This document shows positions 5,212-26,285 of a stretch of DNA of 64,000 nucleotides, piece by piece (the first letter of the stretch is position 1; each line of letters starts with the position of its first letter). A program made the position numbers and the translations under genes. The notes under the pieces are model-generated. The model was given only the letters and a program-made list of their open reading frames with translations, ran no database searches and was not told the origin of the DNA. Source of the stretch: an uncultured Gammaproteobacteria bacterium. Lineage in GTDB: Bacteria > Patescibacteriota > Microgenomatia > Daviesbacterales > UBA10151. Location of the stretch: positions 21,543-85,542 of the forward strand of contig CAYQAW010000004.1 of assembly GCA_964415615.1 (NCBI GenBank). Reading direction: 5' to 3'.

Positions 5212-6519
5212 ATGAAAATTTCGGTAATTGGATTAGGCAAGCTAGGGCTGCCTTTGGCAACAACAATTGCTTCTAAAGGATTTCAAGTTATCGGAGTTGA
5301 TATCAATAAAAAGGTTATTGAAGATGTTAATAATGGGTGTACTAGTTTACAAGAGCCGAATCTGCTAGCTCTTATTAAAAAATATAAGTATAACCTTTCC
5401 GCAACTTTTGATGTCAAAGAGGCTGTTTTAGAGACAGAAATTACTTTTATTATAACTCCCACTCCAAGCCAAAAGAATGGTTATTTCTCATTAAAATACG
5501 TAAATGATGCAGCAAGGGAAGTAGCAAGCGCCTTGAAGGTAAAGCAGGGGTATCATCTGGTGGTGGTGGTAAGTACTGTTATGCCTGAGTCCACCGAGAA
5601 AATAAAAACTATACTGGAAAAAGATTCTGGAAAGAAATGTATAGAAGACTTTGGGTTGTGCTACAACCCTGAATTTATTGCTCTTGGTTCTGTAATTTAC
5701 AACCTCTTAAACCCAGATTTTATTTTAATTGGAGAATCAGACAAAAAAGCAGGAGATATTTTGCAAAAGTTTTATGAAAAATATTGTGACAACGAACCTG
5801 CTATTGCAAGAATGAATTTTGTGAATGCTGAACTGGCAAAGATTTCTGTAAATACATATGTTACTACCAAGATTTCCTATGCTAACATGCTTTCTGGGAT
5901 TTGTGAAAAGCTACCTGGAGGAGATGTAGATGTTGTGACTCAAGCAATTGGATTGGATTCGAGGATAGGAAAAAAATACTTAAAGGGGGGCACAGCGTTT
6001 GGAGGACCTTGTTTTCCGCGTGATAATATTGCTTTTGTCAGTTTATCGAGAAACCTTAGGGTTGCATCTTATCTTGCGAAGGCAACACACAGAATGAATC
6101 TAAGACAAATAGACCGATTGACAGAGATTGTATTGCAGTATAAAGATGATAATTCAACAGTAGGCATTTTGGGTTTATCTTATAAACCTTTCACAGATGT
6201 GATAGAAGAGTCGCCTGGATTTCTATTAGCACAGCAACTAATTAAAAAAAATATAACTGTTTGCCTCTGGGATCCTTTAGCTTTGGATAATGCGGAAAGG
6301 TCTTTAGGTAAAAGTGCTCGGTATGCAGGCAGTGTTAAAGAATGTATAGAAAATTCGCAGGTATTAGTAATAACTACTGAATGGTCGGAATATAAAAATA
6401 TCAATAGCAGTTGGTTTGAAGGGAAGCCGAAGGTAATAATCGATCCTTGGAGAATACTTAGCTCAAAGCAATTAACAGAAAAAGTAAAGTATCTTCCCTT
6501 AGGAACAAATAGCGGCTAG
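5212..6519 (+). CDS. Nucleotide-sugar dehydrogenase (UDP-N-acetyl-D-mannosamine dehydrogenase WecC/Cap5O-like)
   Basis: 'MKISVIGLGKLGLPLATTIASKGFQVIGVDIN' closely matches the WecC N-terminus (ISVIGLGYIGLP...VIGVDIN). A 'GGPCFPRD' catalytic Cys region is present. With the WecB-like gene at 6..1130 this gives a UDP-ManNAcA route. Confidence 0.7.
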   Translation: MKISVIGLGKLGLPLATTIASKGFQVIGVDINKKVIEDVNNGCTSLQEPNLLALIKKYKYNLSATFDVKEAVLETEITFIITPTPSQKNGYFSLKYVNDAAREVASALKVKQGYHLVVVVSTVMPESTEKIKTILEKDSGKKCIEDFGLCYNPEFIALGSVIYNLLNPDFILIGESDKKAGDILQKFYEKYCDNEPAIARMNFVNAELAKISVNTYVTTKISYANMLSGICEKLPGGDVDVVTQAIGLDSRIGKKYLKGGTAFGGPCFPRDNIAFVSLSRNLRVASYLAKATHRMNLRQIDRLTEIVLQYKDDNSTVGILGLSYKPFTDVIEESPGFLLAQQLIKKNITVCLWDPLALDNAERSLGKSARYAGSVKECIENSQVLVITTEWSEYKNINSSWFEGKPKVIIDPWRILSSKQLTEKVKYLPLGTNSG

Positions 6520-7664
6520 CGAGCAATCATCTTTTGATATATACCCAGTCTTTCCATGATAGCAACTGTTCGAAACATTACTTGATTAACTATAGGAACT
6601 TTGTAAAATGTACGGGCTATCAGCCGCATTGTTCGTCGTACTATCATATCCGGGATGAATCCTTTAGATGGATTGTATCTTGAAGGGGTATAGCCATACC
6701 TCCAGGCTAAAGTAGTAAACGAGGAATAAGGGTTGAATCTGATTATAAATCCTGCATCTCTTGTGCGGAAGCTAAAGTCTACATCCTCCAGGTTTACCCA
6801 ATATCTAGTTTCATCTAACAACACCTTTTCAAACATACTCTTTTTAATAATGACCATCTGTCCGGACAAATACATATAATAATCCCATTCTTTATAGTCT
6901 AAGGTAGCTATTTTATAAAGTTTATGGATCGGTCCACCAAAAGTTACCCAATCACCAGCTCTTGCACCAGTTTTCTCTTCTTGAATACAGCCTAATATTT
7001 CAAAAGCATTTCCATATTTTTTCATTCCTTTATACCAGTTGGAGTTGAAAATAAGGCGGTCGTGAATTAAACATAGGTTTTCAAACTGGGCTTTCTCAGC
7101 GATCAAGTTTTTCTTTTTTGTGATCCAGCCTTGATCCGATCTTTCGTTAAAATCTATATAAACGAAATTCTTCTCGGGCCGCTTTCTATATTTACCGCAC
7201 ACTATAATTTCATATTGAGGAATTTTCTGTTTCTTTATAGAAGTAATTATTGATTCTAGCCAATCATCACGTTGTCCGTTGGTGATAATCCCAAAAGACC
7301 ATTTGTTTATACTATCGTTAGGTAAAAAGATAGCTTTCTTCTTTTGAATTATCAGCTGACTTTTTTCTGCCTGGGTATGTTTTAAAATATTGTAATTTCC
7401 CTTAAATAGCCACCAAAAAAGATTTTCCATGGACTGAAAATTAATTTCCTTAGTCGGCTTATATTCAATTATAAGATAGCCTTTGGGCTTTAAAATAAAA
7501 AAAGCTTCCTTAAGAAGGATAGGGGCATACTGACTTTTTTTAAGAAAATTTGTTAGATAAACAAAGTCTAAGATTTCTTGTTTATATTTTGGGTTTAAGC
7601 GGAAAAGATTATCTATTTTTTCGGGGTGTAGTTTTAAACCTTTACCTTTTAGAAATTTTTTCAT
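6516..7664 (-). CDS. Hypothetical protein with GT2-like (GT-A) central domain
   Basis: 'WSFGIITNGQRDDWLESIITSIKKQKIPQYEIIVCG' and 'EDVDFSFR' resemble family-2 glycosyltransferase signatures. The N-terminal ~70 aa ('FFILKPKGYLIIEY') resembles the tail of a methyltransferase fold. No firm family assignment. Confidence 0.4.
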   Translation of the reverse strand: MKKFLKGKGLKLHPEKIDNLFRLNPKYKQEILDFVYLTNFLKKSQYAPILLKEAFFILKPKGYLIIEYKPTKEINFQSMENLFWWLFKGNYNILKHTQAEKSQLIIQKKKAIFLPNDSINKWSFGIITNGQRDDWLESIITSIKKQKIPQYEIIVCGKYRKRPEKNFVYIDFNERSDQGWITKKKNLIAEKAQFENLCLIHDRLIFNSNWYKGMKKYGNAFEILGCIQEEKTGARAGDWVTFGGPIHKLYKIATLDYKEWDYYMYLSGQMVIIKKSMFEKVLLDETRYWVNLEDVDFSFRTRDAGFIIRFNPYSSFTTLAWRYGYTPSRYNPSKGFIPDMIVRRTMRLIARTFYKVPIVNQVMFRTVAIMERLGIYQKMIAR

Positions 7665-7682
7665 GGAGTTATTCTACATTAA

Positions 7683-8531
7683 TCAGATCAATATTTGAAG
7701 CTCTGTTGGATAATCTGTACAGATGCCATCAGCAGTTCCCCAGTCAATAATCATTTGCCAAAGGGATTTTAATTTTGCCAGCTCTTTGGCCATTGGGTGG
7801 TGTTCATGATAATGTAGTTCAGGCGAGATGACATCAATTCTTCCGGGATATGCTGATTTAAATTTTTTAAACGTTTCTTCATTATAAATAGAACCGGGTA
7901 TTTTCCATTCATCTGCCCAGACCGAATTATATACTGAAGTGAATTCTCGTCTGAGAGCCTGGGTAGGGGTATAAATAGTAGGAGCATAGTTTTTTTCACC
8001 TACAGAGACTGAGAGATTAAGCCAGGGAAACTCTTGATGGAGTATTTTAGCTTCTTCTAAGGTTGCATCAAAGACAATGCAATTTTGAAGACTGTTTCGT
8101 TCAATGCCTCTGGCAATGGCTTGGCCCACTTTGACACCGCTTGCAGAATTACTTCCTCGCTTGACTTGGAAGGCAATAAAGGGAGGTTGTGCGGTATGGG
8201 AGTTAATTTTGGCAAGTTGGAAAAGTTCGTCAAGCGTGGGAATACTAAATTTGGGATTAGATATATATCTTATTACTTTAATCTGAGAAATTCCCGTTTG
8301 ATCTATGACTGTTGAGATATTTGAAAAGCGAACTACATCACTGTCATGTATGACTACAAAGTTGTTATCGCCAGTAAGCCTAACGTCAGTCTCGATCCCC
8401 CAGTCCTTTTTAAAGGCTCGTTCAAAGGCTTCTAAAGTATTTTCAGGAATTTGGTATTGTGGTATGGTGGGAATGGGACCTTCTGGCAAAAACCCTCCTC
8501 GGTGAGAAATAACTTTAGTTTTCTTCATCAA
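7683..8531 (-). CDS. Glycerophosphodiester phosphodiesterase (GDPD) family protein
   Basis: 'VISHRGG', 'ENTLEAFERA' and 'GIETDVRLTGDNNFVVIHD' are the canonical GDPD HR(G) / E.T.EAF / E.DV..T.D...V..HD motifs. Confidence 0.7.
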   Translation of the reverse strand: MMKKTKVISHRGGFLPEGPIPTIPQYQIPENTLEAFERAFKKDWGIETDVRLTGDNNFVVIHDSDVVRFSNISTVIDQTGISQIKVIRYISNPKFSIPTLDELFQLAKINSHTAQPPFIAFQVKRGSNSASGVKVGQAIARGIERNSLQNCIVFDATLEEAKILHQEFPWLNLSVSVGEKNYAPTIYTPTQALRREFTSVYNSVWADEWKIPGSIYNEETFKKFKSAYPGRIDVISPELHYHEHHPMAKELAKLKSLWQMIIDWGTADGICTDYPTELQILI

Positions 8532-8618
8532 CTGGATAATAGCATCCGGATTAATCTAAGACAATATATAGTTGATAATTAAGGATTTCTAATCTAAACT
8601 TAACAACTGAGATCAGTT

Positions 8619-9125
8619 ATGCAAAAAGTTGAACATCTAATATTTAATAATGGTACCCCAAGGAAAAATAAAATTATTCTTGGCTTGTTACTTTTGCGTT
8701 TTCCGCTATTTATTCCGTTAGTTAAATTTCTAATTAAGAGGAGTTTAAGGCATTGCAAAGATATAGATTTCTTACCGAGATTTGTTTATTACTTAGGAAA
8801 TATATATGCTGAAAAAGTACATTTTGGAGATGGCCTTTTTATGGATTATGCACCTATCTATATTGGAAAAGGATCTAGTTTTGGTTGGCAGTGCATGGTA
8901 GCCACTGGCTACCATGACCCAAAAGACTATAAAGTAGTTCATGCGAAATCCGTAATAATAGGAGAGAATGTGCAAATAAATTCCAGAACTATTATTTTAG
9001 GTGGAGTGAGAATTGGAAATAGGGCAGTTATAGGAGCAGGCAGCGTGGTAACAAAAGATGTCCCAGCAAACTGTTTTGCAGCCGGAAATCCAGCCAAAGT
9101 GATTAAACATCTTGCGAAAAGTTGA
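8619..9125 (+). CDS. Hexapeptide-repeat (LbH) sugar O-acetyltransferase
   Basis: The C-terminus has 'IIGENVQINSRTIILGGVRIGNRAVIGAGSVVTKDVPANCFAAGNPAKVIK', the left-handed beta-helix acetyltransferase signature (maltose/galactoside/WcaF-like). Confidence 0.65.
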   Translation: MQKVEHLIFNNGTPRKNKIILGLLLLRFPLFIPLVKFLIKRSLRHCKDIDFLPRFVYYLGNIYAEKVHFGDGLFMDYAPIYIGKGSSFGWQCMVATGYHDPKDYKVVHAKSVIIGENVQINSRTIILGGVRIGNRAVIGAGSVVTKDVPANCFAAGNPAKVIKHLAKS

Positions 9126-9157
9126 ACCACTACTATGTTTGTGTTAAGATCCAGCGC

Positions 9158-10204
9158 ATGGTAATAGATCGAGAACAAAGAATTCTAGCAGTTAGAGAAG
9201 TTATAGCCAACTATCCAACTGAACAACTGCCTCATCCGCAGATAGCTTTACTTGCCGAAGTAGGGATTAGGGCTGCCTTAGCTTCTGCAAAGATAGCGAG
9301 AGCTGTTTTTGAAGGAACCAACCCAACTAATCTGCAGATTGAATGGAAGCAAGATGCAACCGCACGTACAGTTGCAGACGTAGAAGGTGATATTGCTATA
9401 GTGAAAGTAATTCAGTCATTGAGGCCTCAGGATAACATTTATATTGAAGAATCAGGTTTCCATAAAGGGGTGGTAAGCCCTCAGCGGAATGGAGAAAGTG
9501 GGATCACCTGGGATGCAGATTCTTTAGACGGGACTCGTGCTTTTACCGAATTTAAACCTTGGTCTGTTTGTGCAGTCGGAGCACGTGATGATAAAGACTA
9601 TCTTCTGGGAGTGGTTGCTCATCCTTTTCGACAAAATTTAGCCTTTGCTATAAGAGGTATGGGAGCATATTCGGCTTCATATAAGGACAACTTAGGGTTA
9701 AAAGTACAACAAATGAGATTAAGGGATAAAGCTACTTTTGCTGGAGCAACTGTAGCAGTAGATTCTTATTGGGGGCCAGCAAACTATGATAGAAAAGCCC
9801 AAGTTCTTAGAGCAATAAACATGAATGCATTTATGAATGGTGGGTTTGTTTCACAAGACGCCGTTGCCAGCAACATTGCTTATCAACTTGATGTAGCTCA
9901 AGGCCTGACTGATTTTGGGATAACTGACTTTATACCAGCAGCTCAAGGTTCTTGGGATTGGAGAGTGGGAGAAGCTTTAATTATAGAAGCAGGAGGAGTA
10001 ATGGTTGATCCTATTACAGGCAATAGGCCTACCAATGTTTCACAAGTAGTGATATATGGTAATAAAAAGCTTGTGGACTTAATATTACCCACAGCGCAAG
10101 CAGCTTATGAAAATTATAAAGGGTTTATAGATTATGATTTTAATCAATGGAGGCAGACTCAAAGTATTCTACATCCTGAGGGGTACCAAGGCCCCAAACA
10201 GTAG
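9158..10204 (+). CDS. Inositol monophosphatase / FBPase / CysQ-family phosphatase
   Basis: 'WDADSLDGTRAF' resembles W.IDP(L)DGT. The C-terminal 'WDWRVGEALIIEAGGVMVD' resembles WD.AAG..I..EAGG. GC content is visibly higher than in neighbouring genes. Start placed at ATG 9158 because the ORF-track start at 9122 is a TTG. Confidence 0.55.
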   Translation: MVIDREQRILAVREVIANYPTEQLPHPQIALLAEVGIRAALASAKIARAVFEGTNPTNLQIEWKQDATARTVADVEGDIAIVKVIQSLRPQDNIYIEESGFHKGVVSPQRNGESGITWDADSLDGTRAFTEFKPWSVCAVGARDDKDYLLGVVAHPFRQNLAFAIRGMGAYSASYKDNLGLKVQQMRLRDKATFAGATVAVDSYWGPANYDRKAQVLRAINMNAFMNGGFVSQDAVASNIAYQLDVAQGLTDFGITDFIPAAQGSWDWRVGEALIIEAGGVMVDPITGNRPTNVSQVVIYGNKKLVDLILPTAQAAYENYKGFIDYDFNQWRQTQSILHPEGYQGPKQ

Positions 10205-10913
10205 GAGTAATAGCTGCTACTATCTTCATCCCCTTCTTAATGAGTCTTTGGTAAATAGGAGCAACATAAAATTCTTTCTTACCCTCATTCCCTGTTAAAT
10301 CATTTTCTGCGATTGCTTCTTCTACTTCCTTAACAAAGATATTTCCATGGCTAAAATAATACCCGCCGATATTTGCGAGAGCTCCTTGATCTGCCAAGGT
10401 TTTATCCTTTTCTCCAACAGCTATAATGACATCTCCTTTTTCAACTAAGGAAAAACTCCATTTAGGATCTTTATCTGGGGGAACAAATACCGGAATTATC
10501 CCTTGTGTTTGAGTATCATTATTAATGATCTTTTGATGTAGAAAGCTTCCGTCGAAGTAATGGTCTGAATCAGAGATGAGGATATCTTCATCTGAGTTGA
10601 TATACTCTTTTGCCTTCAAAACCGTCTCTGATGCGCCTCTTGTGATCTGGTCAATTAATATGATTTTAATATTATTACCGAAAAGGTCTTTTAAAGATTG
10701 GCAGATCCGAAAGTTGTTTTCATGCTCTTGTAGACAAATAAAAAGTAGATTACTGGGATCAATCTTGAATCCTTTTAAGGATTCAATTGCCCAGACAATC
10801 ATTGGTTTTCCTGAAACGTTTATCAAAGGTTTAGGCTTTTTATATTCAGGATTAGAATCAGCAGCAGCTAAAAATCTTGATCCTTTACCAGCCATCGGTA
10901 TGATAATTTTCAT
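10140..10913 (-). CDS. Sugar-phosphate/alcohol-phosphate nucleotidyltransferase (NTP_transferase, MobA-like fold)
   Basis: N-terminus 'MKIIIPMAGKGSRF...KPLINVSGKPMIVWAIE' is the G-x-G-x-R nucleotide-binding loop plus the K/PL substrate loop. Substrate unknown. The 3' end overlaps the convergent IMPase-like gene by 65 bp. Confidence 0.6.
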   Translation of the reverse strand: MKIIIPMAGKGSRFLAAADSNPEYKKPKPLINVSGKPMIVWAIESLKGFKIDPSNLLFICLQEHENNFRICQSLKDLFGNNIKIILIDQITRGASETVLKAKEYINSDEDILISDSDHYFDGSFLHQKIINNDTQTQGIIPVFVPPDKDPKWSFSLVEKGDVIIAVGEKDKTLADQGALANIGGYYFSHGNIFVKEVEEAIAENDLTGNEGKKEFYVAPIYQRLIKKGMKIVAAITPTVWGLGTPQDVEYFESASID

Positions 10914-10921
10914 CTGTTTTT

Positions 10922-11650
10922 TTACGAAGATAGATATTTACTCAGATCTTCAGGAGTTCCCAATCCATGCATTTGTGATTGTTTTATTTCCCAAATTACG
11001 ATTTTCTTTCCTGACAAAATCATCTCGTTAAAAATAGGACAGACATAAAAATCGTTGTTGAACCTAATGTCTTTAATAATCATAGAGAAAGCTGCTTCTA
11101 CAAAAAGAGTACCTTTTTTAAAATAGTAGATTCCTGCTGTGGCGTGATTGGAGATAACCTTTTTTTCGGCTGTTTCCAAGACCTGCCCCTTCTTATTCAC
11201 TCGGGCATAACTCCATTTTGGGTGCTGAGAGTTAAAGGTTAAAATTGCACCATCAGACTTAGATTTTCTAGCAAAGCTTATAAACTGATTGATGTCAGTA
11301 TCGAGTATTTGATCAGCATTGGCTACTATTAATTCATCATCGTTATCTATCAAATCAACTGCAGTAAGCACTGTACAGGCAGCTCCTTGAGTAGAAGCTG
11401 TTAACTGGACTGTTTGAAAATTGATTCCAGCAGCATTACGAAAAATTTGGTTCATCGAATAATTATCATAGTGATCTTTTTTGCATACTAAAATAAATTG
11501 ATGAGGAATCTTTGGTCTTAAGTTTTCAATCACTAATTGAATCATTGGTTTACCATTAATGTCAATTAAAGGTTTGGGGAAAGTATATCCTGCATTTTGA
11601 AAGCTATTTCCTGATCCAGATAATGGTATAACGATATTTAACTTCTTCAT
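10922..11650 (-). CDS. Nucleotidyltransferase, paralogue of 10140..10913
   Basis: 'NIVIPLSGSGNSF...KPLIDINGKPMIQLVIE' has the same architecture as the adjacent gene. A tandem pair suggests a hetero-oligomer or two activation steps. Confidence 0.6.
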   Translation of the reverse strand: MKKLNIVIPLSGSGNSFQNAGYTFPKPLIDINGKPMIQLVIENLRPKIPHQFILVCKKDHYDNYSMNQIFRNAAGINFQTVQLTASTQGAACTVLTAVDLIDNDDELIVANADQILDTDINQFISFARKSKSDGAILTFNSQHPKWSYARVNKKGQVLETAEKKVISNHATAGIYYFKKGTLFVEAAFSMIIKDIRFNNDFYVCPIFNEMILSGKKIVIWEIKQSQMHGLGTPEDLSKYLSS

Positions 11651-11655
11651 AAGCT

Positions 11656-12291
11656 TTAGACTAAATTTAGATCTGTAAACATTGACAAATTTACATCCTC
11701 TTGGCCTTTTACAGCAATGACTTTTGCTCCAGCTGTTTTTGCAGCTTGTATACCATGTAGAGCATCTTCAACAATGATAGTCTCGTTTGGTTTAACTTTA
11801 AGTAGTTTAAAGGTTGCCAAATAGATATCTGGTGAAGGCTTTGGTTTAAACCCTTCGTCGTTACCAATAATAAACTCAAAAAAATTGTCTAAATAGGCCC
11901 CTTTTAACATATTTAATACTGAATATTTTTGAGCATTACTACAACAGGCCAATTTATAGCCTGCCCTTTTAAGATTTGTCAGCAAAATTTGTTTTTCATG
12001 AGTCGGTTTGCAAAGTTGAATAACCTTTTCATCGGTATACTTTCTTTTTAAAGCTTTTATAACTTTATGCAACCCTTGCGGCAAGCCTTCTCTTTGGGTT
12101 AGCAGTTTTAATTTTTCCGCTGTAGGTAAACCATTATAAAGACTATCATGTTCCTCTCTGCTGATTTCATAACTAAATAACTTTAGGGCTTGGTTTAAGG
12201 CTTCGTAATGCCATTCAACAGCGTCGACTAGAACTCCATCTAGATCAAAAATGATTGCTTTAATCATAAGGCTTGTAATATTATATACCAT
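11656..12291 (-). CDS. HAD-superfamily hydrolase (beta-phosphoglucomutase / phosphatase subfamily IA)
   Basis: Motif I 'IIFDLDGVLVD'. Motif IV 'VEDALHGIQAAKTAGAKVIAV'. Confidence 0.7.
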   Translation of the reverse strand: MVYNITSLMIKAIIFDLDGVLVDAVEWHYEALNQALKLFSYEISREEHDSLYNGLPTAEKLKLLTQREGLPQGLHKVIKALKRKYTDEKVIQLCKPTHEKQILLTNLKRAGYKLACCSNAQKYSVLNMLKGAYLDNFFEFIIGNDEGFKPKPSPDIYLATFKLLKVKPNETIIVEDALHGIQAAKTAGAKVIAVKGQEDVNLSMFTDLNLV

Positions 12292-12294
12292 AAT

Positions 12295-15030
12295 ATGCTT
12301 CGGATTTCTTCTGTTAAACTTATTATAGTATTTTTATTAATACCCTTAATTTTAAATAGTATTTGGTTTAGTAATGGTTTATTGCACGGAGGAGGCGAAG
12401 AGGGAATTTTGTACTATAACCCTGAAAAAATCTTGCGTCTCTCAACTTCTGTTTGGGTTGATTTTACAGCTGGCGCTTCTGTGATGTTGTGGTTGCAACA
12501 AATGCCTGTGGCTTATCTTTCCATGGTATTTGAAAAATTTGGTTTACCGCATTTCCTTTTCCAAGCAATAATTTTTTATACCCTTATGACTATTGGGGTA
12601 TTTTCGACCTATTATTTAACGCTTACTGTACTGAAAAAAGACGAAGAGGATGATGCTGCAAGCAATAAAAATTCAAAGATTATTGCTTTTATTTCAGCCG
12701 TTTTCTATCTATTTAACCCTTTTACGATCAGTCAGATTTGGGGAAGAAGTCTATCTACGCAATACTTTGCATTTGCTCTTTTTCCATTGACTCTTTTGCT
12801 GTTTTACCTAGGCTTTAATAGAAAGAAATATATTTTTGGGCTTTTTGCTGTGTTAGCATCCTCTGCATTGGCTCTGGCGTATCAATTTTTGACTTTTATA
12901 ATTGTTTATTGGCTAGTAATATTAATTTTTTTCATCCATAGGTTAGTTATATCTAATAATAGAACTAAAGAAGCACTTTTTGGTATTAAGTTTTTTTTCT
13001 TAACCTCTATTTTCTGGTTTTTTCTAAATGCCTGGTGGTTTGTGCCGTTATTCTTATCTTTTGGGAATATTAACTCGGTTGGTACGCCTCACGCAGAAGA
13101 TAATTTAGGATCACTTTTAGGCGTAAGCAGGAATTATCCCTTAGAGGTAATTGTTAGGTTATTACATAAGGGGTATTTTTTTGATTTTACAGCATATAGC
13201 CAGATTTATTCTACAATCCCTTTCCAGCTTATAAGCCTTGTTCCATTTCTTCTGGTAATTTTGGGGCTTATTAAGATATTAAAAAACAAAGAACAGGTAA
13301 AGCTAAGGTTTTTTGTTATATTGCTTGTATTGGGTTGTATTATTTCAGCAGGAGCTAACCCGCCTTTTGGATGGTTGTTTGTATGGCTTTTCAAATCAGT
13401 ATTTGTACTACAAGCTTTTAGGAACCCTTTTGAGAAATTTGGCCTTGTTTACGCTTTAGGTTACAGTGTTATATTTGCCTATGGATTGGTTTATTTCTTA
13501 AATAACAAGAAATCTAAAAAATTCTTGCTTTTCTTAGTGCTTTTCTTAACCTGTATTGTTTATGCTTGGCCGATGTGGACTGGAAGGGTAATTGCCGGAT
13601 ATGACAAAAAGATCGGTCTGGATATACCTACATATTATAGCGATTTACGGAAGTGGTTGAGCGAGCGAGGAGAAGATTATAGAGTACTGATGACACCGAT
13701 ATGGGTAGGAGATTCAGCTTTCTACCAATGGAATGATGCAGCTAGATATCAGGGTAGCGATCCAATGATTTATATGTTAGACCAGGGGGTAATTTCAAAT
13801 AGCGCCCGTGGAGCTTATTATTCGGAGTTTATTACTTATGTAAGAAATCATATGCAAAGGGAGGATGTTGTTCCAGCGCTTTTCCTTCTTAGGACAAAAT
13901 TTCTAGTAGACAGAAAAGATGCAATTTTAGTTACTGATACAGAGAAAGAGCATTATAAGTTTTTGGCATCAAATATATATCCTCCTTTAGGGAAAGACAG
14001 TAATCTTAAAAGCATCTGCCAAAATAAAATCGCAGACGCTAAGCCTACTGGTGTGGCTTGGGTTACTTGTACTCTCAATAAGGAAAATACCGACTTAAGT
14101 AATATAAAGTATTTGCATATTAAAATAAAAACTGATGTTCCTGCTAGTGTGGAAGTATCATTGCGGGATACAAAAGATGCAGGGATTGTATGGCATGGAA
14201 GAGTGGACCCGGAATATAGTACAGATACTAATGACTGGCAGTATATAACTATTCCTTTAAGGAGTCCGGCTGACAACAATAGTAATATAGATTTATCTAA
14301 AAGTAACCTAATTGAGATATGGGCATATCTTAAGGATCATCCAGAAGTATCGGTTAATAAGATTGAAATTGCAGAGATTAAGCTTGATCCAGGGACAGAA
14401 AAACGGATAAATGAATTTAGACAAGTAGCGGAGCTTGGTAAGTTAACAGTTTTTGAACCAACTAATTTTAACTCTCCGCCTGAGTTTGGGAGTTTATCGT
14501 CAATTGCGAAAGTTCAAGGATTTAGTCAATTATTTGAGAAAGCAAATGAGGACAGAAGCCAAATTGACAAGAAGGGGTTTGTCTTAACTTCGCAGAATCT
14601 CCAGAAGGATCTGCAGAGTTTACCGGATGAAGTCCCTTTGAGAATTATTGATAAAAATAAGCTTTCTGAAACCAGGTATTGGTTGCAAGCTGCTAAGGAC
14701 CAAGGCGCAGGTTTATTACTGCTTAGTAAGACTTTTGATCCTAATTGGAAAGTTATTGCAGGAGTGAGTAAAGATAGACTTTCGGGTAATATCTTTGACG
14801 ATTTAAAGTTACTTAAACTAGCTACTTTACCAGAGGACAATCATTTCGTGGTTAATGGCTATGCTAATTTATGGAAGATTGATGGCAAGGATAATCAGTA
14901 TGCGATTGTATTTATCCCACAGATAATTGCAGAAATAAGCTTAAAGGTTTCGATATTCAGCTTGCTAATTATTTCTGGGCTTATTTTATTATGGGGAATC
15001 AAAAAACGTATAATTTCAAAATTCTATTAA
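12295..15030 (+). CDS. Giant polytopic membrane protein, putative GT-C glycosyltransferase (YfhO/AftD-like), paralogue family member 1
   Basis: 911 aa. About 14 predicted TM helices at the N-terminus ('GGGEEGILYYNPEK', 'FRNPFEKFGLVYALGYSVIFAYGL'). A large hydrophilic C-terminal domain ends 'FDPNWKV...VNGYANLWKIDG' and a final TM. It shares these motifs with 36357, 40289 and 43487. Confidence 0.6.
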   Translation: MLRISSVKLIIVFLLIPLILNSIWFSNGLLHGGGEEGILYYNPEKILRLSTSVWVDFTAGASVMLWLQQMPVAYLSMVFEKFGLPHFLFQAIIFYTLMTIGVFSTYYLTLTVLKKDEEDDAASNKNSKIIAFISAVFYLFNPFTISQIWGRSLSTQYFAFALFPLTLLLFYLGFNRKKYIFGLFAVLASSALALAYQFLTFIIVYWLVILIFFIHRLVISNNRTKEALFGIKFFFLTSIFWFFLNAWWFVPLFLSFGNINSVGTPHAEDNLGSLLGVSRNYPLEVIVRLLHKGYFFDFTAYSQIYSTIPFQLISLVPFLLVILGLIKILKNKEQVKLRFFVILLVLGCIISAGANPPFGWLFVWLFKSVFVLQAFRNPFEKFGLVYALGYSVIFAYGLVYFLNNKKSKKFLLFLVLFLTCIVYAWPMWTGRVIAGYDKKIGLDIPTYYSDLRKWLSERGEDYRVLMTPIWVGDSAFYQWNDAARYQGSDPMIYMLDQGVISNSARGAYYSEFITYVRNHMQREDVVPALFLLRTKFLVDRKDAILVTDTEKEHYKFLASNIYPPLGKDSNLKSICQNKIADAKPTGVAWVTCTLNKENTDLSNIKYLHIKIKTDVPASVEVSLRDTKDAGIVWHGRVDPEYSTDTNDWQYITIPLRSPADNNSNIDLSKSNLIEIWAYLKDHPEVSVNKIEIAEIKLDPGTEKRINEFRQVAELGKLTVFEPTNFNSPPEFGSLSSIAKVQGFSQLFEKANEDRSQIDKKGFVLTSQNLQKDLQSLPDEVPLRIIDKNKLSETRYWLQAAKDQGAGLLLLSKTFDPNWKVIAGVSKDRLSGNIFDDLKLLKLATLPEDNHFVVNGYANLWKIDGKDNQYAIVFIPQIIAEISLKVSIFSLLIISGLILLWGIKKRIISKFY

Positions 15031-16037
15031 GATAATAATTCTTCTTTACCCGAAGAAGCAGCTTTACTAATAGCATCAAGCACCTTAATAATGTTTACAG
15101 CCTCATCTATTCCTGGTAGTGGTTTAAAGGAAAGGTTTTTTCCAGATAAGTAATCATCAACAACCTTGACTTCTATTGCAGTTGTTAAAGTTTGATTATT
15201 TGCTAAATCTATCACTTGAGGAGTTTTGTTACTTTGTTGATGAAAAAGGAGAAGGTTAGATTTATTATGACTTCTCAGTTCTCCGCGTTCACACTCAACA
15301 ATTAGGTCTGTGCCGCTTTTGTTTCGGGAAGTAGTAGCATCTAATTCAACTTGGGCAAATAAGCCGGAAACGAAAGCTAGCTCTATATGATAACTAGCAG
15401 GATAGTTTTTGGTTTCTTGTTTTATGATTTGAGCTTTTAATTTTACAACTGGCTCGTTTGCAATCCAGCAAGCCAGATCAATAGCATGTGATCCAGCAAT
15501 ATAAAGGAAGTCTTCATTTTTTCTTAAAGGTTTTCTTTGTTGGTATTCATTTACATCATGGAAATAAGTTGTTTTAATGGTTTTTAGAGCTCCCAAGCCG
15601 CTTGAGGTAAGGAGTTTCTTAGTCTCTGTAAAGGTAGGAGTTAAGCGATAATTTTGTCCTACTATTATAGTAGCATTGTTTTGATGAGCAAGCTTTTGCA
15701 GGTACAAAGCATCTTTGAGACTTGTGGTAAAAGATTTTTCACACAAAACTGCTTTGTTATTTTTTATTGCCAAAGCAACATATTCTGTATGTTGGTCATC
15801 AGGGGTACAAACATGGACAAGGTTAGACCAATTAATTGCCTCTTCTAAATTATCAAAAATAATTACCTTAGCCTGGTTTTTTAATGTTTGTGCAGTCTCA
15901 GAGTTTTGAGTATATACACCAGCTTGAAATCCTAAATTTAGTTGTGCATCCAAATGCCTTTTTCCAGCAACACCTAAACCAATAATCAGTGGTTTAATAA
16001 TTTTGAATTCATCTGGCATTAATGTATTATACTGCAT
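15027..16037 (-). CDS. Gfo/Idh/MocA-family NAD(P)-dependent oxidoreductase (sugar dehydrogenase-like)
   Basis: 'IIGLGVAGKRHLD' Rossmann motif. 'VHVCTPDDQHTEYVALAIKNNKAVLCEKSF' contains the family EKP motif. Confidence 0.7.
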   Translation of the reverse strand: MQYNTLMPDEFKIIKPLIIGLGVAGKRHLDAQLNLGFQAGVYTQNSETAQTLKNQAKVIIFDNLEEAINWSNLVHVCTPDDQHTEYVALAIKNNKAVLCEKSFTTSLKDALYLQKLAHQNNATIIVGQNYRLTPTFTETKKLLTSSGLGALKTIKTTYFHDVNEYQQRKPLRKNEDFLYIAGSHAIDLACWIANEPVVKLKAQIIKQETKNYPASYHIELAFVSGLFAQVELDATTSRNKSGTDLIVECERGELRSHNKSNLLLFHQQSNKTPQVIDLANNQTLTTAIEVKVVDDYLSGKNLSFKPLPGIDEAVNIIKVLDAISKAASSGKEELLS

Positions 16038-16043
16038 AGATAT

Positions 16044-16904
16044 ATGACTGAAATAAGTGGTTTAAGAGATGTATTAATAGGTCAACAATTTGTTGATAGG
16101 GCAGTCACATATGCTGTTGCTCGCAATCCAGCTCTTTTAAAAATTGATCAGGAGAAGGTGTTTGGTTTAGCACGAAGAGCTGCTTCTGAGATGGTAACTT
16201 TTGAAGATTTAGCAAGGAATGAACCTTTGCGTATTCCAAACACTCCAGAGGAGTGCAAAAGAATAAAAGCAATTTACGATTTATCTTATGTGGGAACTTA
16301 CTTAAAAGGATATCGGGATGATCGATATCAAGGTACGCCTGGGACAGAATGGACAGATAGAAGAAGACTAAACTATACAGCCACTCTGATCAGGCGATTA
16401 ACTGAAACCATAACAGGTAACCGCTCCACAACTCCTTTAGGTATGAAGCTGAGTTCTCAGCAAATAGAACAATTAAGGTCAAATATTGAACAGTTTGGGC
16501 CTTATCTTATTTATGGTTCTACGTCAGAACAGAATGAAGATTTAGAGATAGCGCTTGAAGGACAAAATGTTATAATCCCCAAAAGTAAGGTCCATATTAT
16601 TGCTGATAGGCCTGTAAACACTAACACCTTAGATCAGGTACAGACTATTAGTTTGCCACCCCAGCTACGGGTGCAAAATGGTGATATTTTAGCAGTGGTC
16701 GCTCATGCTCCCCATTTGGTAAGATCCCTGCATATGTTAAATAGATACAAAACCTTGCCGAAAGGAATGATTGTTAAACCATACCCAATGCCAGCACCTT
16801 CTGTAGGCGGAGTAGATTTTGCTATTCGGGAAGTAAGTGGTTTATTGTACTATACATTTATCACTGAAGACGCTTCAGAAGAGATTTATCCTTATCAAAT
16901 TTAA
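16044..16904 (+). CDS. Hypothetical cytoplasmic protein (no recognisable family)
   Basis: 286-aa ORF with good coding potential and no TM segments. It lies 5 bp upstream of a histidine-phosphatase gene. GC is slightly above the window average. Confidence 0.5.
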   Translation: MTEISGLRDVLIGQQFVDRAVTYAVARNPALLKIDQEKVFGLARRAASEMVTFEDLARNEPLRIPNTPEECKRIKAIYDLSYVGTYLKGYRDDRYQGTPGTEWTDRRRLNYTATLIRRLTETITGNRSTTPLGMKLSSQQIEQLRSNIEQFGPYLIYGSTSEQNEDLEIALEGQNVIIPKSKVHIIADRPVNTNTLDQVQTISLPPQLRVQNGDILAVVAHAPHLVRSLHMLNRYKTLPKGMIVKPYPMPAPSVGGVDFAIREVSGLLYYTFITEDASEEIYPYQI

Positions 16905-16909
16905 CTGGA

Positions 16910-17581
16910 ATGGAAATATTACTTATACGACACGCGGAACAATTGTATCCATATAATGAGCAGGGCAAGAAAATGGTGAGTGGTGTTGATGCTCCGCTTG
17001 TTGAATTGGGCAGGCAACAAATGAGGGAATTAAGGGAAGAATTAAAAAGGCAAGGAAGAATTTTAAATGCAGTCTATAGGAGTCCGCTTTTAAGGGCTAG
17101 ACAATCAGCTGATGAATTAGTAGGTAACTCTGATGTACCTATCTATGAAGTTGATAATTTAAAAGAAGGCTATCCTAATAGCGCTGAGGGTCATGCCTAT
17201 GATGAGTTAGAAGAAAGAGGAGGGGATATATATGCCCATTCTTTTGGGGAGCAAGAAAGCTTAGACCATCTTGTTGAGAGATCCAGGCAAGCTGTAAAAG
17301 AAATTTTGGAAAATGCTAATAACCATGGCTTTGAATCAATAGCAATTGTTGGCCACGGAGATCCGCTTTGTGCTTTACAGTGGGGTTTACATAATGAGGG
17401 TTTGCCTACAAGCTATGCAGAGATGAAAAAAGACTTTTATCCGCAAAAGGGTAAAGCTTATTTGTATCCAGTTTCTCAGCAAGAGCCTTTTAGGGTAACA
17501 GGCGAAGGGAGAATTTTTACAACAAAGGCTGCAAATGAAACCATTGAAGGTTTGCGGTCTGCCAATAAGGAAGGGGTCTAA
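16910..17581 (+). CDS. Histidine phosphatase superfamily (phosphoglycerate-mutase-like) protein
   Basis: 'ILLIRHAEQ' is the RHG/RHA catalytic motif. A second 'VGHGDPL' histidine motif is present. Confidence 0.65.
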   Translation: MEILLIRHAEQLYPYNEQGKKMVSGVDAPLVELGRQQMRELREELKRQGRILNAVYRSPLLRARQSADELVGNSDVPIYEVDNLKEGYPNSAEGHAYDELEERGGDIYAHSFGEQESLDHLVERSRQAVKEILENANNHGFESIAIVGHGDPLCALQWGLHNEGLPTSYAEMKKDFYPQKGKAYLYPVSQQEPFRVTGEGRIFTTKAANETIEGLRSANKEGV

Positions 17582-17622: not shown

Positions 17623-19149
17623 ATGTCTAAGTCTAAAATTGGCTATTTTCTATTAATTATTTTATTGTCTTTTATCAGCTTTTATCCTGCTTTTAATTTT
17701 TCTTTTATTGTTGATGATTGGTACTTACTTTGGGGAGTATTTTTTGACAAGACCATTATTGCAGAATACCTTCGGACTCAACACCCAAACGTTGTTTATG
17801 AATTTTTACTACTAGCTCCAATTTTTAAATTTAATCCATTTTATTATCAAGTGGTGGGATATATTCTTAAGGTGGTAGATTCTTTTACTGTTGGCCTTTT
17901 AATATTGAGCGTTACAAAATCTCGCACTGCTGCTTTGTTTTCCAGTATCACTTTTGCTGCCTCAGAAATTGGAATAGAAGCGTTTACCCGCATAGGTGCG
18001 CAAAATTCTGCCCTGCTTATCCCGACTTTATCTTTAGGATTTTATTTTTGGTTTAAAGCCAAGGAAGGAAACTCAATTACCAAGTATTTGGTTTCTTTAA
18101 TGTTTATAGTCCTGGGTCTTTTAGGTGATCCAGGGACCGGGATAGTGATTGTACCGGTAATTGTTTTATGGGAAGTATTAAACCTTATCCAGAAGTACTC
18201 AAGACAAAACTTAAAACGGGTCCTTATTCATACAGGTTTACTATTTTTAACTATAATCTTTATTACGAGGATCTTCTTAGATTCTAAGATTTCTGATAGA
18301 CAAGATTATATCTCTAAACATTTAATATTTATTGCGAATAATCTATTCTTTACAACAGCTAATTTCCTGACGTCTATTGGAAACTTTTTAATGGGATGGG
18401 TTATCTCTTTTCCAGAGTACACTCATCTGGGAAGTCCAAGCATAGTGACAATGATTTTTGGAGGAGCTTTTGTTATCAGTATTGCAATTTTGGGGATGAT
18501 TTTTATTTTAAAGAAAAAGGAAAGCTCCAAAGTAGTATTATTTTTATCCATCTTTTCTCTATTATTTTATCTGCCAAGTTGGCTTACTCAAACCCACTAT
18601 GTGGAAGGGGGAGCTATTTCCGCAGCTTCAAACCGCTATTTTGCCATTTCTAGTATAGGTCTATTAGGACTAATTTCATATCTAATTACTATAATAAAGA
18701 GTACTAATTTCAGATTCATTGTGATTGCCTTGGTGGTTTTATTACAACTATGGAGTGCAAACAGGGTTTTGATACAAGAAGCCAAATATAGAACTACTAA
18801 AGTTCAAAATATACTCTATAGCCAAATTAATAAAGATGCTCCTAAAGGAAGCGAACAGAGAAGTCTTTATGTATTTTTAGGTAATAGTTGGCTGAGGATC
18901 GTGGGACTTGGGTGGAATGGTTTTTTCCCACTTGCTCTACAAAGAGGAATTATTAATATAAAGGAGTTTCCTGCAATTGTTAATAATTTGCAGCTTGCTA
19001 AAGAGGATATTTGCCCTTTAGATAAGTCTACGCCCAAATATAGCCTTGCTGATATGTATGCTTGGGAAGTTGACGAGCAGTCTATTTATAATGTCACAGA
19101 GCAAGCAAGAAAATTGGTTAATGACAGCTGTGCTGGTTTATCTAGGTAA
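17623..19149 (+). CDS. Polytopic membrane protein, possible GT-C-type glycosyltransferase
   Basis: 508 aa and highly hydrophobic with many predicted TM helices. An early acidic loop 'IVDDWYLLW' resembles the DE/DD motif of GT-C enzymes. No firm assignment. Confidence 0.5.
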   Translation: MSKSKIGYFLLIILLSFISFYPAFNFSFIVDDWYLLWGVFFDKTIIAEYLRTQHPNVVYEFLLLAPIFKFNPFYYQVVGYILKVVDSFTVGLLILSVTKSRTAALFSSITFAASEIGIEAFTRIGAQNSALLIPTLSLGFYFWFKAKEGNSITKYLVSLMFIVLGLLGDPGTGIVIVPVIVLWEVLNLIQKYSRQNLKRVLIHTGLLFLTIIFITRIFLDSKISDRQDYISKHLIFIANNLFFTTANFLTSIGNFLMGWVISFPEYTHLGSPSIVTMIFGGAFVISIAILGMIFILKKKESSKVVLFLSIFSLLFYLPSWLTQTHYVEGGAISAASNRYFAISSIGLLGLISYLITIIKSTNFRFIVIALVVLLQLWSANRVLIQEAKYRTTKVQNILYSQINKDAPKGSEQRSLYVFLGNSWLRIVGLGWNGFFPLALQRGIINIKEFPAIVNNLQLAKEDICPLDKSTPKYSLADMYAWEVDEQSIYNVTEQARKLVNDSCAGLSR

Positions 19150-19840
19150 AGTTATTTTTGGGTGAAAGTTCATTTAGTAAAACTTTAATATTCTCCCAGC
19201 CAGTTTTAAGGGACCGCATAGAAGTTTCATTGAATACTCGTTTGCCTTCTTTGGTAGGAAATTCGGTGATTTTGATCTTAAGCTTAAGAGCTCTTATTAC
19301 TTGCTCGTAATCGGGTGCAATTGCATTTGGAATCTTAATTCCCAATTTATTATATACAGATCTTGAAAATGCCCGATAACCTTGAGTTATATCAGTACAA
19401 AAGAATTCTTTATTCCCCCAAAAAGTGTTCGCCGCTTTGCCAAGGCCTTGGCAGAACCATTTTCTACTTTTTATTAATTGATCATCTTCTTCATTAATTG
19501 CTTTCTTGATCATTCTGCTGGCAATAATAAACCCAACTCCTTTTCTAAGCAGGGAAACAAACTTTAGAATAGCTTCTGGATCCATATTGCCATCCGGGTG
19601 GAAAAATATCAGACAATCTTCTTTGGTATTTCCGAAAGCAGACTCGTAAGCTCCTCCAACTCCCGGATATCTTTGCGAGAATACCTTAATTTTTTTACTT
19701 TGCCAAAATTTTCTGGTGCCATCGATCGAGTTTCCATCTATAATGTAGGTTTTATTAACTGCATGAAAGGGAATCTTATTGAAAATATATTCACAATTTT
19801 TCTTCTCGTTTTTGGTAAATATTACTAAGGCAATTTTCAT
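19142..19840 (-). CDS. Glycosyltransferase family 2
   Basis: 'MKIALVIFTKNEKKNCEYIFNKI...YIIDGNSIDGT' is a GT-A fold N-terminus (DPM1/GtrB-like). Start set at ATG 19840. Confidence 0.65.
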   Translation of the reverse strand: MKIALVIFTKNEKKNCEYIFNKIPFHAVNKTYIIDGNSIDGTRKFWQSKKIKVFSQRYPGVGGAYESAFGNTKEDCLIFFHPDGNMDPEAILKFVSLLRKGVGFIIASRMIKKAINEEDDQLIKSRKWFCQGLGKAANTFWGNKEFFCTDITQGYRAFSRSVYNKLGIKIPNAIAPDYEQVIRALKLKIKITEFPTKEGKRVFNETSMRSLKTGWENIKVLLNELSPKNNFT

Positions 19841-26283: not shown

Positions 26284-26285
26284 CT

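Follow-up and report, generated by a model that had tools for sequence, protein, structure and literature searches.

Nucleotide-sugar pathways as such are well known. Among the described systems closest to the one analyzed here are GmhB/HddA/HddC (GDP-heptose) and MupP/AmgK/MurU (UDP-MurNAc), which combine a phosphatase of the haloacid dehalogenase (HAD) family with a nucleotidyltransferase (NT), together with the heteromers GMPPA/GMPPB, the large and small subunits of plant ADP-glucose pyrophosphorylase and eIF2B gamma/epsilon, which are paired NT-fold paralogs of which one has lost a loop and yet is conserved. We analyzed a 64-kb stretch of DNA from an uncultured bacterium (contig CAYQAW010000004.1 of assembly GCA_964415615.1, positions 21,543 to 85,542; about 34% G+C), referred to below as the window, whose nearest relatives are Patescibacteria/Microgenomates such as Candidatus Daviesbacteria. 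On its minus strand, genes for a HAD enzyme, two tandem nucleotidyltransferases (NT2 and NT1), a glycerophosphodiester phosphodiesterase (GDPD) and a member of a family that we call p382 constitute, as judged by sequence comparison, one conserved module. We consider it moderately likely that this module makes a nucleotide-activated sugar that is transferred to a cell-surface glycan, with NT1 and NT2 working as a heteromer. The HAD-plus-NT logic is that of the Hdd and Mur routes, but scores against their enzymes are low (HddC 32 against a cut-off of 300, MurU 25 against 250 and MupP 33 against 359) and the window has neither the kinase nor the SIS isomerase.

Gene content and conservation of the module

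Coordinates and strands of the open reading frames (ORFs) were checked, and Pfam gathering and NCBIfam equivalog cut-offs were applied. All six ORFs singled out by an initial annotation of the window were present as described, and each exceeded the Pfam cut-off for the fold assigned to it (Table 1). None of these genes reached an NCBIfam equivalog cut-off (TarI/IspD, HddC, IPCT, GlmU, RmlA, MurU, MobA, beta-phosphoglucomutase (beta-PGM), SuhB, HisN and CysQ), all scores lying far below, in agreement with the annotation's remark that no canonical Tar, Lic or Hdd enzyme is recognizable here. The HAD gene is the first of a HAD-NT2-NT1 operon, with 5 nt between HAD and NT2 and 8 nt between the NT2 stop and the NT1 start. 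The remaining minus-strand genes, GDPD and p382, are 18 nt apart, and p382 lay outside the coordinates that the initial annotation considered. Between these two groups sits a plus-strand pair encoding a hexapeptide acetyltransferase and a protein of the inositol monophosphatase (IMPase) family, the latter gene being convergent with NT1 with a 65-nt overlap of the 3' ends. Promoter and terminator scans of positions 6300-12500 returned hits at chance frequency (22 against 20.1 expected and 4 against 4.6, respectively).

Related loci were gathered with an NT2-based scan (80 loci, one genome per species), to which L001 and L003 were added; ORFs within 7 kb of NT2 were called and clustered, and hidden Markov models (HMMs) from the clusters were searched. 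In 21 of these 82 loci the contig stops within 3 kb, which makes the partner counts lower bounds. The loci derive from at least 10 phyla and comprise Patescibacteria of many classes, Micrarchaeota (DPANN archaea), Bdellovibrionota, Firmicutes and plasmids of Proteobacteria, with further members from Butyrivibrio, Anaerovibrio, Prochlorococcus, Acidobacteriota, Gemmatimonadota and Elusimicrobia. The beta-PGM-type HAD gene was found in 71 loci, usually directly upstream of NT2, and a module-specific GDPD in 60, typically directly downstream; the window GDPD matches the HMM of the latter family with E = 2.5e-63. A cupin of 107 amino acids (aa) with an HxH...E metal motif was present in 40 loci, and a WavE-family (PF07507) or p382 gene in 46 (32 and 16 loci, respectively), giving the common order HAD-(NT)-(cupin)-NT2-GDPD-(WavE or p382). 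Several of these genes are also fused to one another: HAD to NT2, with NT2 intact, in at least eight loci, cupin to NT2 in P0107, P0108, P0112 and L012, and NT to NT in Azospirillum. Complete modules, with GDPD-like, HAD, NT, cupin, p382-like and WavE genes, are carried on plasmids of Pseudomonas aeruginosa PA83, Scandinavium goeteborgense and Azospirillum lipoferum 4B.

Within 64 kb of contiguous glycan genes one would expect carbohydrate enzymes as neighbors, and the IMPase and the acetyltransferase are not conserved partners of the module. Both points would suit a chance juxtaposition of unrelated housekeeping genes in a large glycan island, an explanation that we regard as very improbable, given that a gene order kept across phyla and three kinds of fusion tie HAD, NT, GDPD and cupin together. 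Co-localization of HAD, NT2, NT1 and GDPD goes beyond chance and that of the IMPase and the acetyltransferase does not; chance adjacency holds only for these two genes and is contradicted for the core. What stands of the novel pathway that was first proposed is a dedicated and apparently uncharacterized activation module in which HAD and GDPD are co-localized across phyla, without the IMPase and acetyltransferase as core members. The annotation had named orthology of the NTs to a single-substrate family, combined with a lack of conserved co-localization, as arguing against such a pathway; we found no equivalog match, and linkage to HAD and GDPD was kept.

The IMPase carries the metal-binding motifs of its family in translation (IEESG, DSLDGT and WDWRVGEALIIEAGG), and its equivalog scores are far below cut-off (HisN 65 against 275, SuhB 46 against 332, CysQ and FBPase/IMPase likewise). 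The initial annotation counted it as a pathway member. It adjoins the module in six of the 82 loci, namely five close relatives (L001, L003, L007 and L008 among them) and L015, and is 28-31% identical there, against 66-78% for the neighboring HAD and NTs. It occupies the same convergent position beside NT1 in L001 (9950-10879), L003 (10230-11156) and L008 (about 11459), and its length is 348 aa in the window and about 308 aa in the relatives. The gene is either fast-evolving or has been replaced at a conserved position. The acetyltransferase is a hexapeptide-repeat O-acetyltransferase of the maltose/WcaF/WbbJ-like kind (best NCBIfam matches below cut-offs) that could O-acetylate the glycan; its homologs lie near the module in just four other loci, which does not bear out its initial placement in the core. 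The pair is best described, on these comparisons, as a lineage-specific insertion between the two module halves. A di-myo-inositol phosphate (DIP)/CDP-inositol pathway built on the IMPase and IPCT was rejected, there being no MIPS, no CDP-alcohol phosphotransferase and no conservation of the IMPase.

The tandem nucleotidyltransferases

In their sequences both NTs resemble the sugar-1-phosphate type rather than the cytidylyltransferases suggested by the initial annotation. The best family matches are RmlA_long, archaeal GlmU, AglF, GMPP and UGPase, and both proteins have the E-K motif typical of sugar-1-phosphate NTs and a conserved C-terminal GLGTPxD. Besides HddC and MurU, equivalog scores remained below cut-off for RmlA_long (42-59 against 320), GlmU (32-39 against 367), MobA-type enzymes (22 against 379) and IPCT (23.5 against 580). 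With the IspD/TarI models, NT1 reached 20.8 bits for PF01128 (cut-off 27) and 15.7 for TIGR00453 (cut-off 181) and NT2 gave no match; the similarity of NT1 to IspD (E = 3.5e-4) and IPCT (E = 2.5e-5) is weak, and similarities to LicC and KdsB are marginal as well. A CMP-Kdo-like route was dropped, as no synthase was present and the KdsB scores were marginal. For NT2, 5958 homologs are detectable, many at 60-83% identity. NCBI PGAP annotates proteins of this NT subfamily as 'glycosyltransferase family 2 protein' or as 'capsular biosynthesis protein' despite their NT fold and motifs, which looks like systematic misannotation.

NT1 and NT2 are paralogs, as initially noted (31% identity, E = 4e-39). 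In a neighbor-joining tree NT2 forms one tight orthologous clade and the second copies are split among three or more distinct clades. The clade of the window NT1 has members from Patescibacteria and Micrarchaeota that are encoded next to NT2. In RmlA- and GlmU-type enzymes the Arg of the GxGxR loop contacts the NTP phosphates. The loop is intact in NT1 (PMAGKGSRF, then PKPL) and reads PLSGSGNSF in NT2, where S16 stands in place of the Arg and the following Lys is kept. In alignments, this S16 corresponds to the Arg of GFGTRL in GMPP (7x8j, a mannose-1-phosphate guanylyltransferase) and of GKGTRV in UGPase (8x7s). At the same time NT2 retains K26, D113, W146-S147, E162-K163 and GLGTPED, and its 68-77% identity to the NT2 of L001, L003, L007 and L008 indicates purifying selection on a functional, conserved protein, not a decaying gene.

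The GxGxR[FL] NTP-binding loop was scored in every NT copy of the loci. A tandem pair was present in 32 of the 82, so that within this family such pairs are not rare, contrary to the initial annotation. Exactly one copy had an intact loop in 31 of these 32 pairs; in the remaining one (L055) both were intact, and no pair had two degenerate copies. Among NT2 orthologs lacking a partner, the loop was intact in 34 of 37, the exceptions being L023 and L075, which lie at contig ends, and L069, a close relative of a paired locus. Degeneracy of NT2 was associated with the presence of a partner (Fisher test, p = 2e-6), but, given the phylogenetic dependence among loci, the pattern by clade outweighs this p-value. 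Patescibacteria, the window among them, have lost the Arg from the NT2 ortholog, and NT1 is intact in every such case. The NT2 ortholog is likewise degenerate in Acidobacteriota, Gemmatimonadota and Elusimicrobia, where it occurs with a more recent duplicate, and in Butyrivibrio, Bdellovibrionota, Micrarchaeota and the P. aeruginosa plasmid it is the partner that has neither the loop nor the C-terminal GLGTPxD. In the NT-NT fusion of Azospirillum the N-terminal half is degenerate and the C-terminal half is intact, and in L001 and L003 the two NT genes overlap by 4 nt.

Since the two copies complement each other in the GxGxR motif in 31 of 32 pairs and degenerate copies are almost never found alone, the simplest reading is that the tandem pair is likely a heteromer in which one subunit is catalytic and the other is not. 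The motifs predict NT1 as the catalytic subunit and NT2 as the non-catalytic or regulatory one. The idea of a heteromeric enzyme, one of two explanations offered initially, thereby gains support, the Azospirillum fusion included, and the other, activation of two different head groups, is disfavored because one copy has lost the NTP-binding motif in all pairs but one. That NT1 and NT2 are two independent active enzymes, serving different head groups or nucleotides, would be compatible with the retention by NT2, Arg16 apart, of K26, D113, E162-K163 and the C-terminal motif, with the Lys that replaces Arg in some degenerate copies and with the joint presence of p382-type and WavE-type transferases in some modules. 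It would leave without explanation the complementarity of the motif, the near absence of solitary degenerate copies, the loss of the whole Gly-rich loop and C-terminal motif from the degenerate copy in several clades and the natural fusion of a degenerate with an intact half, and we hold it to be quite improbable. Compared with heteromers of the GMPPA/GMPPB type (NT2 also matches GMPPB, PDB 7d72), the predicted NT1/NT2 heteromer has an independent origin, is short (240-260 aa) and is without a C-terminal left-handed beta-helix; moreover, the pairing arose repeatedly, the degenerating ortholog changes between clades, and the arrangement is known here from sequence.

Proposed pathway and candidate sugar

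The HAD enzyme, which probably starts at M9 (12267; 203 aa according to gene callers), passes the HAD-IA model TIGR01509 (61 against 29), has an invariant FDLDGV and falls below the beta-PGM cut-offs (TIGR01990, 95 against 189; TIGR02009, 107 against 153). It is equally similar to beta-phosphoglucomutases and to sugar phosphatases, matching solved beta-PGMs and TM1254 with E = 1e-15 to 1e-17. Its fold and its catalytic motifs (DxDG, S/T, K and ED) agree with those of beta-PGM (Lactococcus lactis PgmB) and HAD-IA sugar phosphatases, but the module family has a conserved cap motif of its own (nGLPTxxK) and its distal-phosphate residues are replaced: relative to the L. lactis enzyme, R49 is T, S116 is Q and N118 is Y, with K117 and S114 kept. 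The enzyme is predicted to supply the sugar phosphate for the NT. Anomeric sugar phosphate would be formed either by mutase action through a bisphosphate intermediate or by phosphatase action on a bisphosphate, after which NT1, within the NT1/NT2 heteromer, would convert it with NTP to NDP-sugar and pyrophosphate. NT2, which keeps the sugar-side residues, would serve as the non-catalytic or regulatory partner.

The AlphaFold2 model of the GDPD (pLDDT 96) has only GDPDs among its top PDB matches, the first being Bacillus subtilis GlpQ with glycerol-3-phosphate (E = 2e-14, TM score 0.69-0.74), and H10, R11, E47, D49, H62 and K124 are invariant. The enzyme shares with GlpQ and UgpQ the TIM-barrel GDPD fold (TM score about 0.7-0.8) and the HR, ExD and HD catalytic residues. 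It differs from them in its low identity (15-22%, with equivalog scores of 18-33 bits against cut-offs of 254-450) and in being embedded in a nucleotide-sugar module as a cytoplasmic enzyme, a location assigned from the N-terminus, where no signal peptide is visible. In addition, the Glu that is the third metal ligand in the E-x-K motif of GDPDs is not conserved in the module family, on a by-eye reading of its consensus AFHxK. Within a nucleotide-sugar pathway the GDPD might, speculatively, handle a phosphodiester side-product or precursor, for example a cyclic sugar phosphate arising by decay of a labile NDP-furanose. In four Patescibacteria loci the GDPD-like gene is adjoined by a 230-aa family (L010:11847-12548, L027:13132-13827, L035:13673-14428 and L036:8377-9042) that has no Pfam match and in which an H-x-T-[IL] motif is conserved at two places, as is characteristic of 2H cyclic phosphodiesterases; speculatively, such a gene beside the GDPD would fit cyclic-phosphate chemistry.

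The GDPD also enters into an alternative raised by the initial annotation, in which the module makes a CDP-polyol phosphate (CDP-glycerol or CDP-2-glycerol) for a teichoic-like phosphodiester decoration: GDPD would free glycerol phosphate from scavenged glycerophosphodiesters, HAD would shift or trim the phosphate and the NT pair would form the CDP-alcohol. The core position of the GDPD, the resemblance of its model to GlpQ with glycerol-3-phosphate and the 2H-phosphoesterase-like genes beside it are consistent with this scheme, as are the dependence of Patescibacteria on scavenged lipids and the weak IspD and IPCT similarity of NT1. PF00483-type NTs can, as in the case of Streptococcus pneumoniae Gtp2, use glycerol-2-phosphate. 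The CDP-2-glycerol pathway is mentioned in PMC1391919, and no domain information on Gtp2 or Gtp3 was found in the literature on it. The NTs themselves point elsewhere, both matching hexose-1-phosphate NT models best and failing the thresholds of IspD, IPCT and LicC-type enzymes. A scan of 44 window ORFs against Pfam found no TagF or LicD and no CDP-alcohol phosphotransferase, the partner that the initial annotation had suggested looking for. Furthermore, the associated transferases are GT-A-like or of the WavE family, a sugar-phosphate-isomerase-like cupin would be useless to a polyol route, and related modules, described below as the trio, occur in glycans with fructose, not glycerol phosphate. 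On balance, we regard synthesis of a CDP-polyol as unlikely.

A different sugar assignment follows from the cupin. The model of a cupin taken from a cupin-NT2 fusion (pLDDT 77) has 105-aa Thermococcus phosphomannose isomerases (PMIs) as its best PDB matches (E about 1e-5), with weaker matches spread over many cupin families, and offers weak evidence for a sugar-phosphate isomerase. Were the cupin a PMI, the HAD a phosphomannomutase and the NT a guanylyltransferase, the module would provide an alternative route, assembled from non-orthologous enzymes, to a common NDP-hexose such as GDP-mannose, and the cupin-NT fusions would mirror the bifunctional type II PMI/GMP (GDP-mannose pyrophosphorylase) enzymes. 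The eukaryotic phosphomannomutase is indeed a HAD enzyme, NT2 has GMP enzymes among its best matches in the PDB, and dehydratase/epimerase genes of the short-chain dehydrogenase/reductase (SDR) family are frequent neighbors of the module. However, the window has no cupin, the structural matches of the cupin are weak and divided among families, and neither the GDPD nor the close link to WavE and p382 would be explained. True GDP-mannose 4,6-dehydratase was found in just nine of the 82 loci, and a link to neighbors named 'GDP-mannose dehydratase' was dropped. Finally, Escherichia coli and Vibrio cholerae, which are hosts of the trio, already have canonical ManB and ManC. A route to GDP-mannose or a similar common hexose is in our estimate improbable.

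For the favored pathway, in which an NDP-sugar is passed to a surface glycan, p382 is a candidate for the transferase that uses the activated product. Its N-terminal region is vestigial methyltransferase-like and its C-terminal domain is GT-A/GT2-like (hhalign against the glycosyltransferase (GT) family GT2, 93.8% probability); hhalign found no relationship between p382 and WavE (probability 0.1%). Homologs of 569-591 aa belong to the complete modules on the plasmids of P. aeruginosa, whose 591-aa protein has no match in Pfam, and of Scandinavium; L008 has a counterpart in the same position with 61% identity. The GT-A-like p382 protein would transfer the sugar, and in other loci a WavE-family protein would do so instead or alongside it. 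The WavE protein of V. cholerae shares 31-37% identity with the WavE-like proteins whose genes adjoin NT2 modules.

In the PDB, both NTs match best to 4evw, a protein from V. cholerae solved by structural genomics (E = 3.7e-9 for NT1 and 5e-17 for NT2), for which the literature yielded only a crystallization-server paper. The clade of 4evw and the E. coli K4 NT is about 30% identical to NT2 and is an outgroup in the tree; in sequence terms it is a sister clade of which the window NTs are not members. An NT of this clade always occurs in a trio with a capless HAD of about 125 aa and a kinase-like protein of 520-560 aa. In E. coli the trio was found in K4 capsule region 2, in the O20 galF-gnd cluster and on an ST131 plasmid, and it is also carried by an Aeromonas plasmid; the plasmid copies neighbor genes for a TagF-like polymerase and KpsC/KpsS. 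Further trio loci are another kps locus and the V. cholerae wav core-oligosaccharide cluster, where the WavE gene directly follows the NT. According to a review of E. coli O antigens, the O20 structure as published is at odds with the O20 galF-gnd cluster, so that this cluster gives no clue to the product of the trio. An acid-labile sugar lost in mild acid hydrolysis could explain the structure mismatch of the O20/O137-type cluster, whose trio lies at L092:8044-10756.

K4 region 2 was recognized by its gene content (galE (kfoA), a 686-aa KfoC, an IS element and ugd (kfoF)). We take its 522-aa kinase-like protein to be KfoE from the gene order of the published map (kfoI-kfoE-kfoH by position). 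KfoE is reportedly the K4 fructosyltransferase. KfoE-like proteins (L093:9300-10868 in K4 region 2, L092:8415-10004, L087:7383-8993 and L095:8421-10004) have a degenerate NT-like N-terminal domain (hmmsearch E = 1e-7 for the L057 copy and 9e-5 for another) and a C-terminal HGDxxxxN kinase signature (HGDLCFSN in K4) like that of aminoglycoside phosphotransferase (APH) and choline kinase. Because of these two domains, and of its position between a small HAD and an NT, KfoE may act in donor synthesis rather than in transfer. KfoE, KfoD and KfoB have no match in Pfam, and NCBI labels KfoE-like proteins variously as 'aminoglycoside phosphotransferase family' or 'nucleotidyltransferase family'. According to reviews, kfoE is responsible for the fructosylation of K4 (PMC10609508, PMC3673904). 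In one Patescibacteria locus, L057, HAD-cupin-NT1-NT2 is accompanied by a KfoE-like gene, a small HAD and three WavE genes. The trio probably also corresponds to Pasteurella multocida bcbE/F/G, on the assumption, suggested by the CDD name 'GT2_BcbE_like' and by the NCBI label 'glycosyltransferase family 2 protein' for these NTs, that BcbE is the NT-like member, and the V. cholerae core oligosaccharide presumably contains fructose.

The trio and the window module share the NT subfamily with its PxWS[FY], FY[VI]xP and EK motifs, a HAD gene beside the NT and a location in surface-glycan loci. WavE-family genes adjoin trio and NT2 modules alike, and in the trio, too, an intact NT is paired with a degenerate NT-like domain, here the N-terminal part of the KfoE-like protein. 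In contrast, the trio has a capless 125-aa HAD and an APH/choline-kinase-like domain, an anomeric kinase being common to it and the Hdd and Mur routes, whereas the window has no kinase, KfoE-like gene or small HAD but a 200-aa beta-PGM-type HAD and a GDPD, to which other lineages add the cupin. A genetic link to fructose exists for the trio type only (kfoE; bcbE and bcbG). We infer that the trio and the NT2-type module are alternative routes to the same or a similar activated sugar, in which the beta-PGM-type HAD of the latter would replace the kinase and the small HAD, with GDPD and cupin as possible extra parts.

As the related trio modules occur in fructose-bearing glycans, a fructofuranose-like ketose is the best lead for the sugar by analogy, though as an assignment it is tentative and may well be wrong. 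The most specific form of the proposal receives little probability from us: a hitherto unrecognized, kinase-independent route to an NDP-fructofuranose-like donor, in which the HAD would shift the phosphate from O6 to the anomeric O2 by way of a 2,6-bisphosphate, the NT and pseudo-NT would form the labile NDP-sugar as an obligate heteromer, the GDPD would salvage the cyclic phosphate left by decay of that product and a GT-A-like or WavE protein would carry out the transfer. A PRPP-dependent ribofuranosylation was rejected for want of a phosphoribosyltransferase.

Several observations weigh against the nucleotide-sugar pathway or its parts. Mutase activity is uncertain because the HAD is without R49 of the distal phosphate site. 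Loss of Arg16 alone does not prove NT2 inactive, and 5 of the 20 NT2 orthologs scored as degenerate have Lys at the Arg position, the window copy having Ser. With respect to conservation, the locus counts are phylogenetically non-independent, the cupin and WavE HMMs have no match in the window, and the closest relatives L001, L003 and L007 have no GDPD within 7 kb. The GlpQ-like GDPD model would fit a glycerol-phosphate pathway at least as well as the repair idea. Lastly, the link to fructose is drawn from a sister clade of about 30% identity and from two assumptions, the presence of fructose in the V. cholerae core and the NT-like nature of BcbE.

The surrounding glycan island and implications

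The whole 64-kb window is a glycan island (Table 1). Large polytopic membrane proteins are unusually concentrated in it, with at least two AftD-like and four PMT_2/ArnT-like GT-C proteins and several of 500-1194 aa that have no Pfam match, and there are two small GT2 genes of the polyprenyl-phosphate type. The 911-aa protein encoded next to HAD, a giant GT-C transferase in the initial annotation, has no direct match in Pfam, PF11847 included, but is 28% identical (E = 2e-56) to the 1016-aa window protein that passes PF11847 (GT-C_AftD) and 32% identical (E = 1e-89) to a PF11847-annotated neighbor in L001. The earlier assignment is sustained to this extent by AftD-type homology, and through these PF11847 proteins the 911-aa protein is probably an AftD-like GT-C glycosyltransferase.

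Table 1. Positions of the module genes and other features in the 64-kb window.
Feature	Coordinates	Strand	Match or remark
p382 protein	6516-7664	-	directly downstream of the GDPD gene
GDPD	7683-8531	-	PF03009, 53.5 bits (cut-off 23.6); N-terminal third only
Hexapeptide acetyltransferase	8619-9125	+	PF00132, 41.1 bits (cut-off 27)
IMPase family	9158-10204	+	PF00459, 81.1 bits (cut-off 27)
NT1	10140-10913	-	PF00483, 37.0 bits (cut-off 21.2)
NT2	10922-11650	-	PF00483, 60.7 bits (cut-off 21.2)
HAD-IA	11656-12291	-	PF13419, 130.7 bits (cut-off 23.8)
Putative AftD-like polytopic membrane protein, 911 aa	12295-15030	+	divergent from the HAD gene
GFO/IDH/MocA oxidoreductase	15027-16037		
286-aa protein, then histidine phosphatase	16044-17581	+	286-aa protein: no family match except a marginal EboE-like TIM match, E = 0.002; phosphatase: PF00300
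Polytopic membrane protein	17623-19149		
GT2, polyprenyl-phosphate type	19142-19876		
Polytopic membrane protein	20607-22484		
328-aa protein	22651-23637	+	PF03385, E = 8e-13
Sugar C-methyltransferase	23650-24930	-	with zinc-binding domain
UDP-glucose/GDP-mannose dehydrogenase	24931-26283	-	
SDR 4,6-dehydratase-like	26286-27413	-	
Third NT	27395-28171	-	PF00483, 76.7 bits
Polytopic membrane protein	29990-32407		
Polytopic membrane protein	36357-39941		
Polytopic membrane protein, 1016 aa	40289-43339		PF11847
Polytopic membrane protein	43487-46192		
Polytopic membrane protein	48414-49952		
GT2, polyprenyl-phosphate type	50662-51381		
Polytopic membrane protein	53814-55253		
Polytopic membrane protein	55228-56586		
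Polytopic membrane protein	57622-59148		

A GFO/IDH/MocA oxidoreductase similar to that of the window lies near the module in L001; in the window its gene stands beside those of the 286-aa protein and the histidine phosphatase. The minus-strand genes at 23650-28171 make up a separate branched deoxysugar pathway with the third NT. The last 100 residues of the 328-aa protein match the STELLO glycosyltransferase family, which is best known from plants. Several metagenome-assembled genomes with Patescibacteria-like modules (among L020-L086) are labeled 'uncultured Gammaproteobacteria', 'Planctomycetia' or 'Candidatus Saccharibacteria', and some of these labels look unreliable.

The module is apparently an uncharacterized activation pathway present in at least 10 phyla, with an NT subfamily of thousands of members. 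Its pairing of one active with one degenerate copy, the roles being swapped between clades, would represent the repeated evolution of a pseudoenzyme partner. The comparison ties a gene cluster of uncultivated lineages to tractable systems, namely E. coli K4, the V. cholerae wav cluster and the P. aeruginosa and Azospirillum plasmids. If the sugar is fructofuranose or a related one, its identification would supply a donor pathway that glycan pathway maps currently lack. If the product is indeed an NDP-ketofuranose, bacteria of the candidate phyla radiation (CPR), DPANN archaea and many other phyla would share an undescribed surface-glycan decoration, and the fructofuranose side chains of E. coli K4, P. 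multocida B and the V. cholerae core would gain a defined donor.

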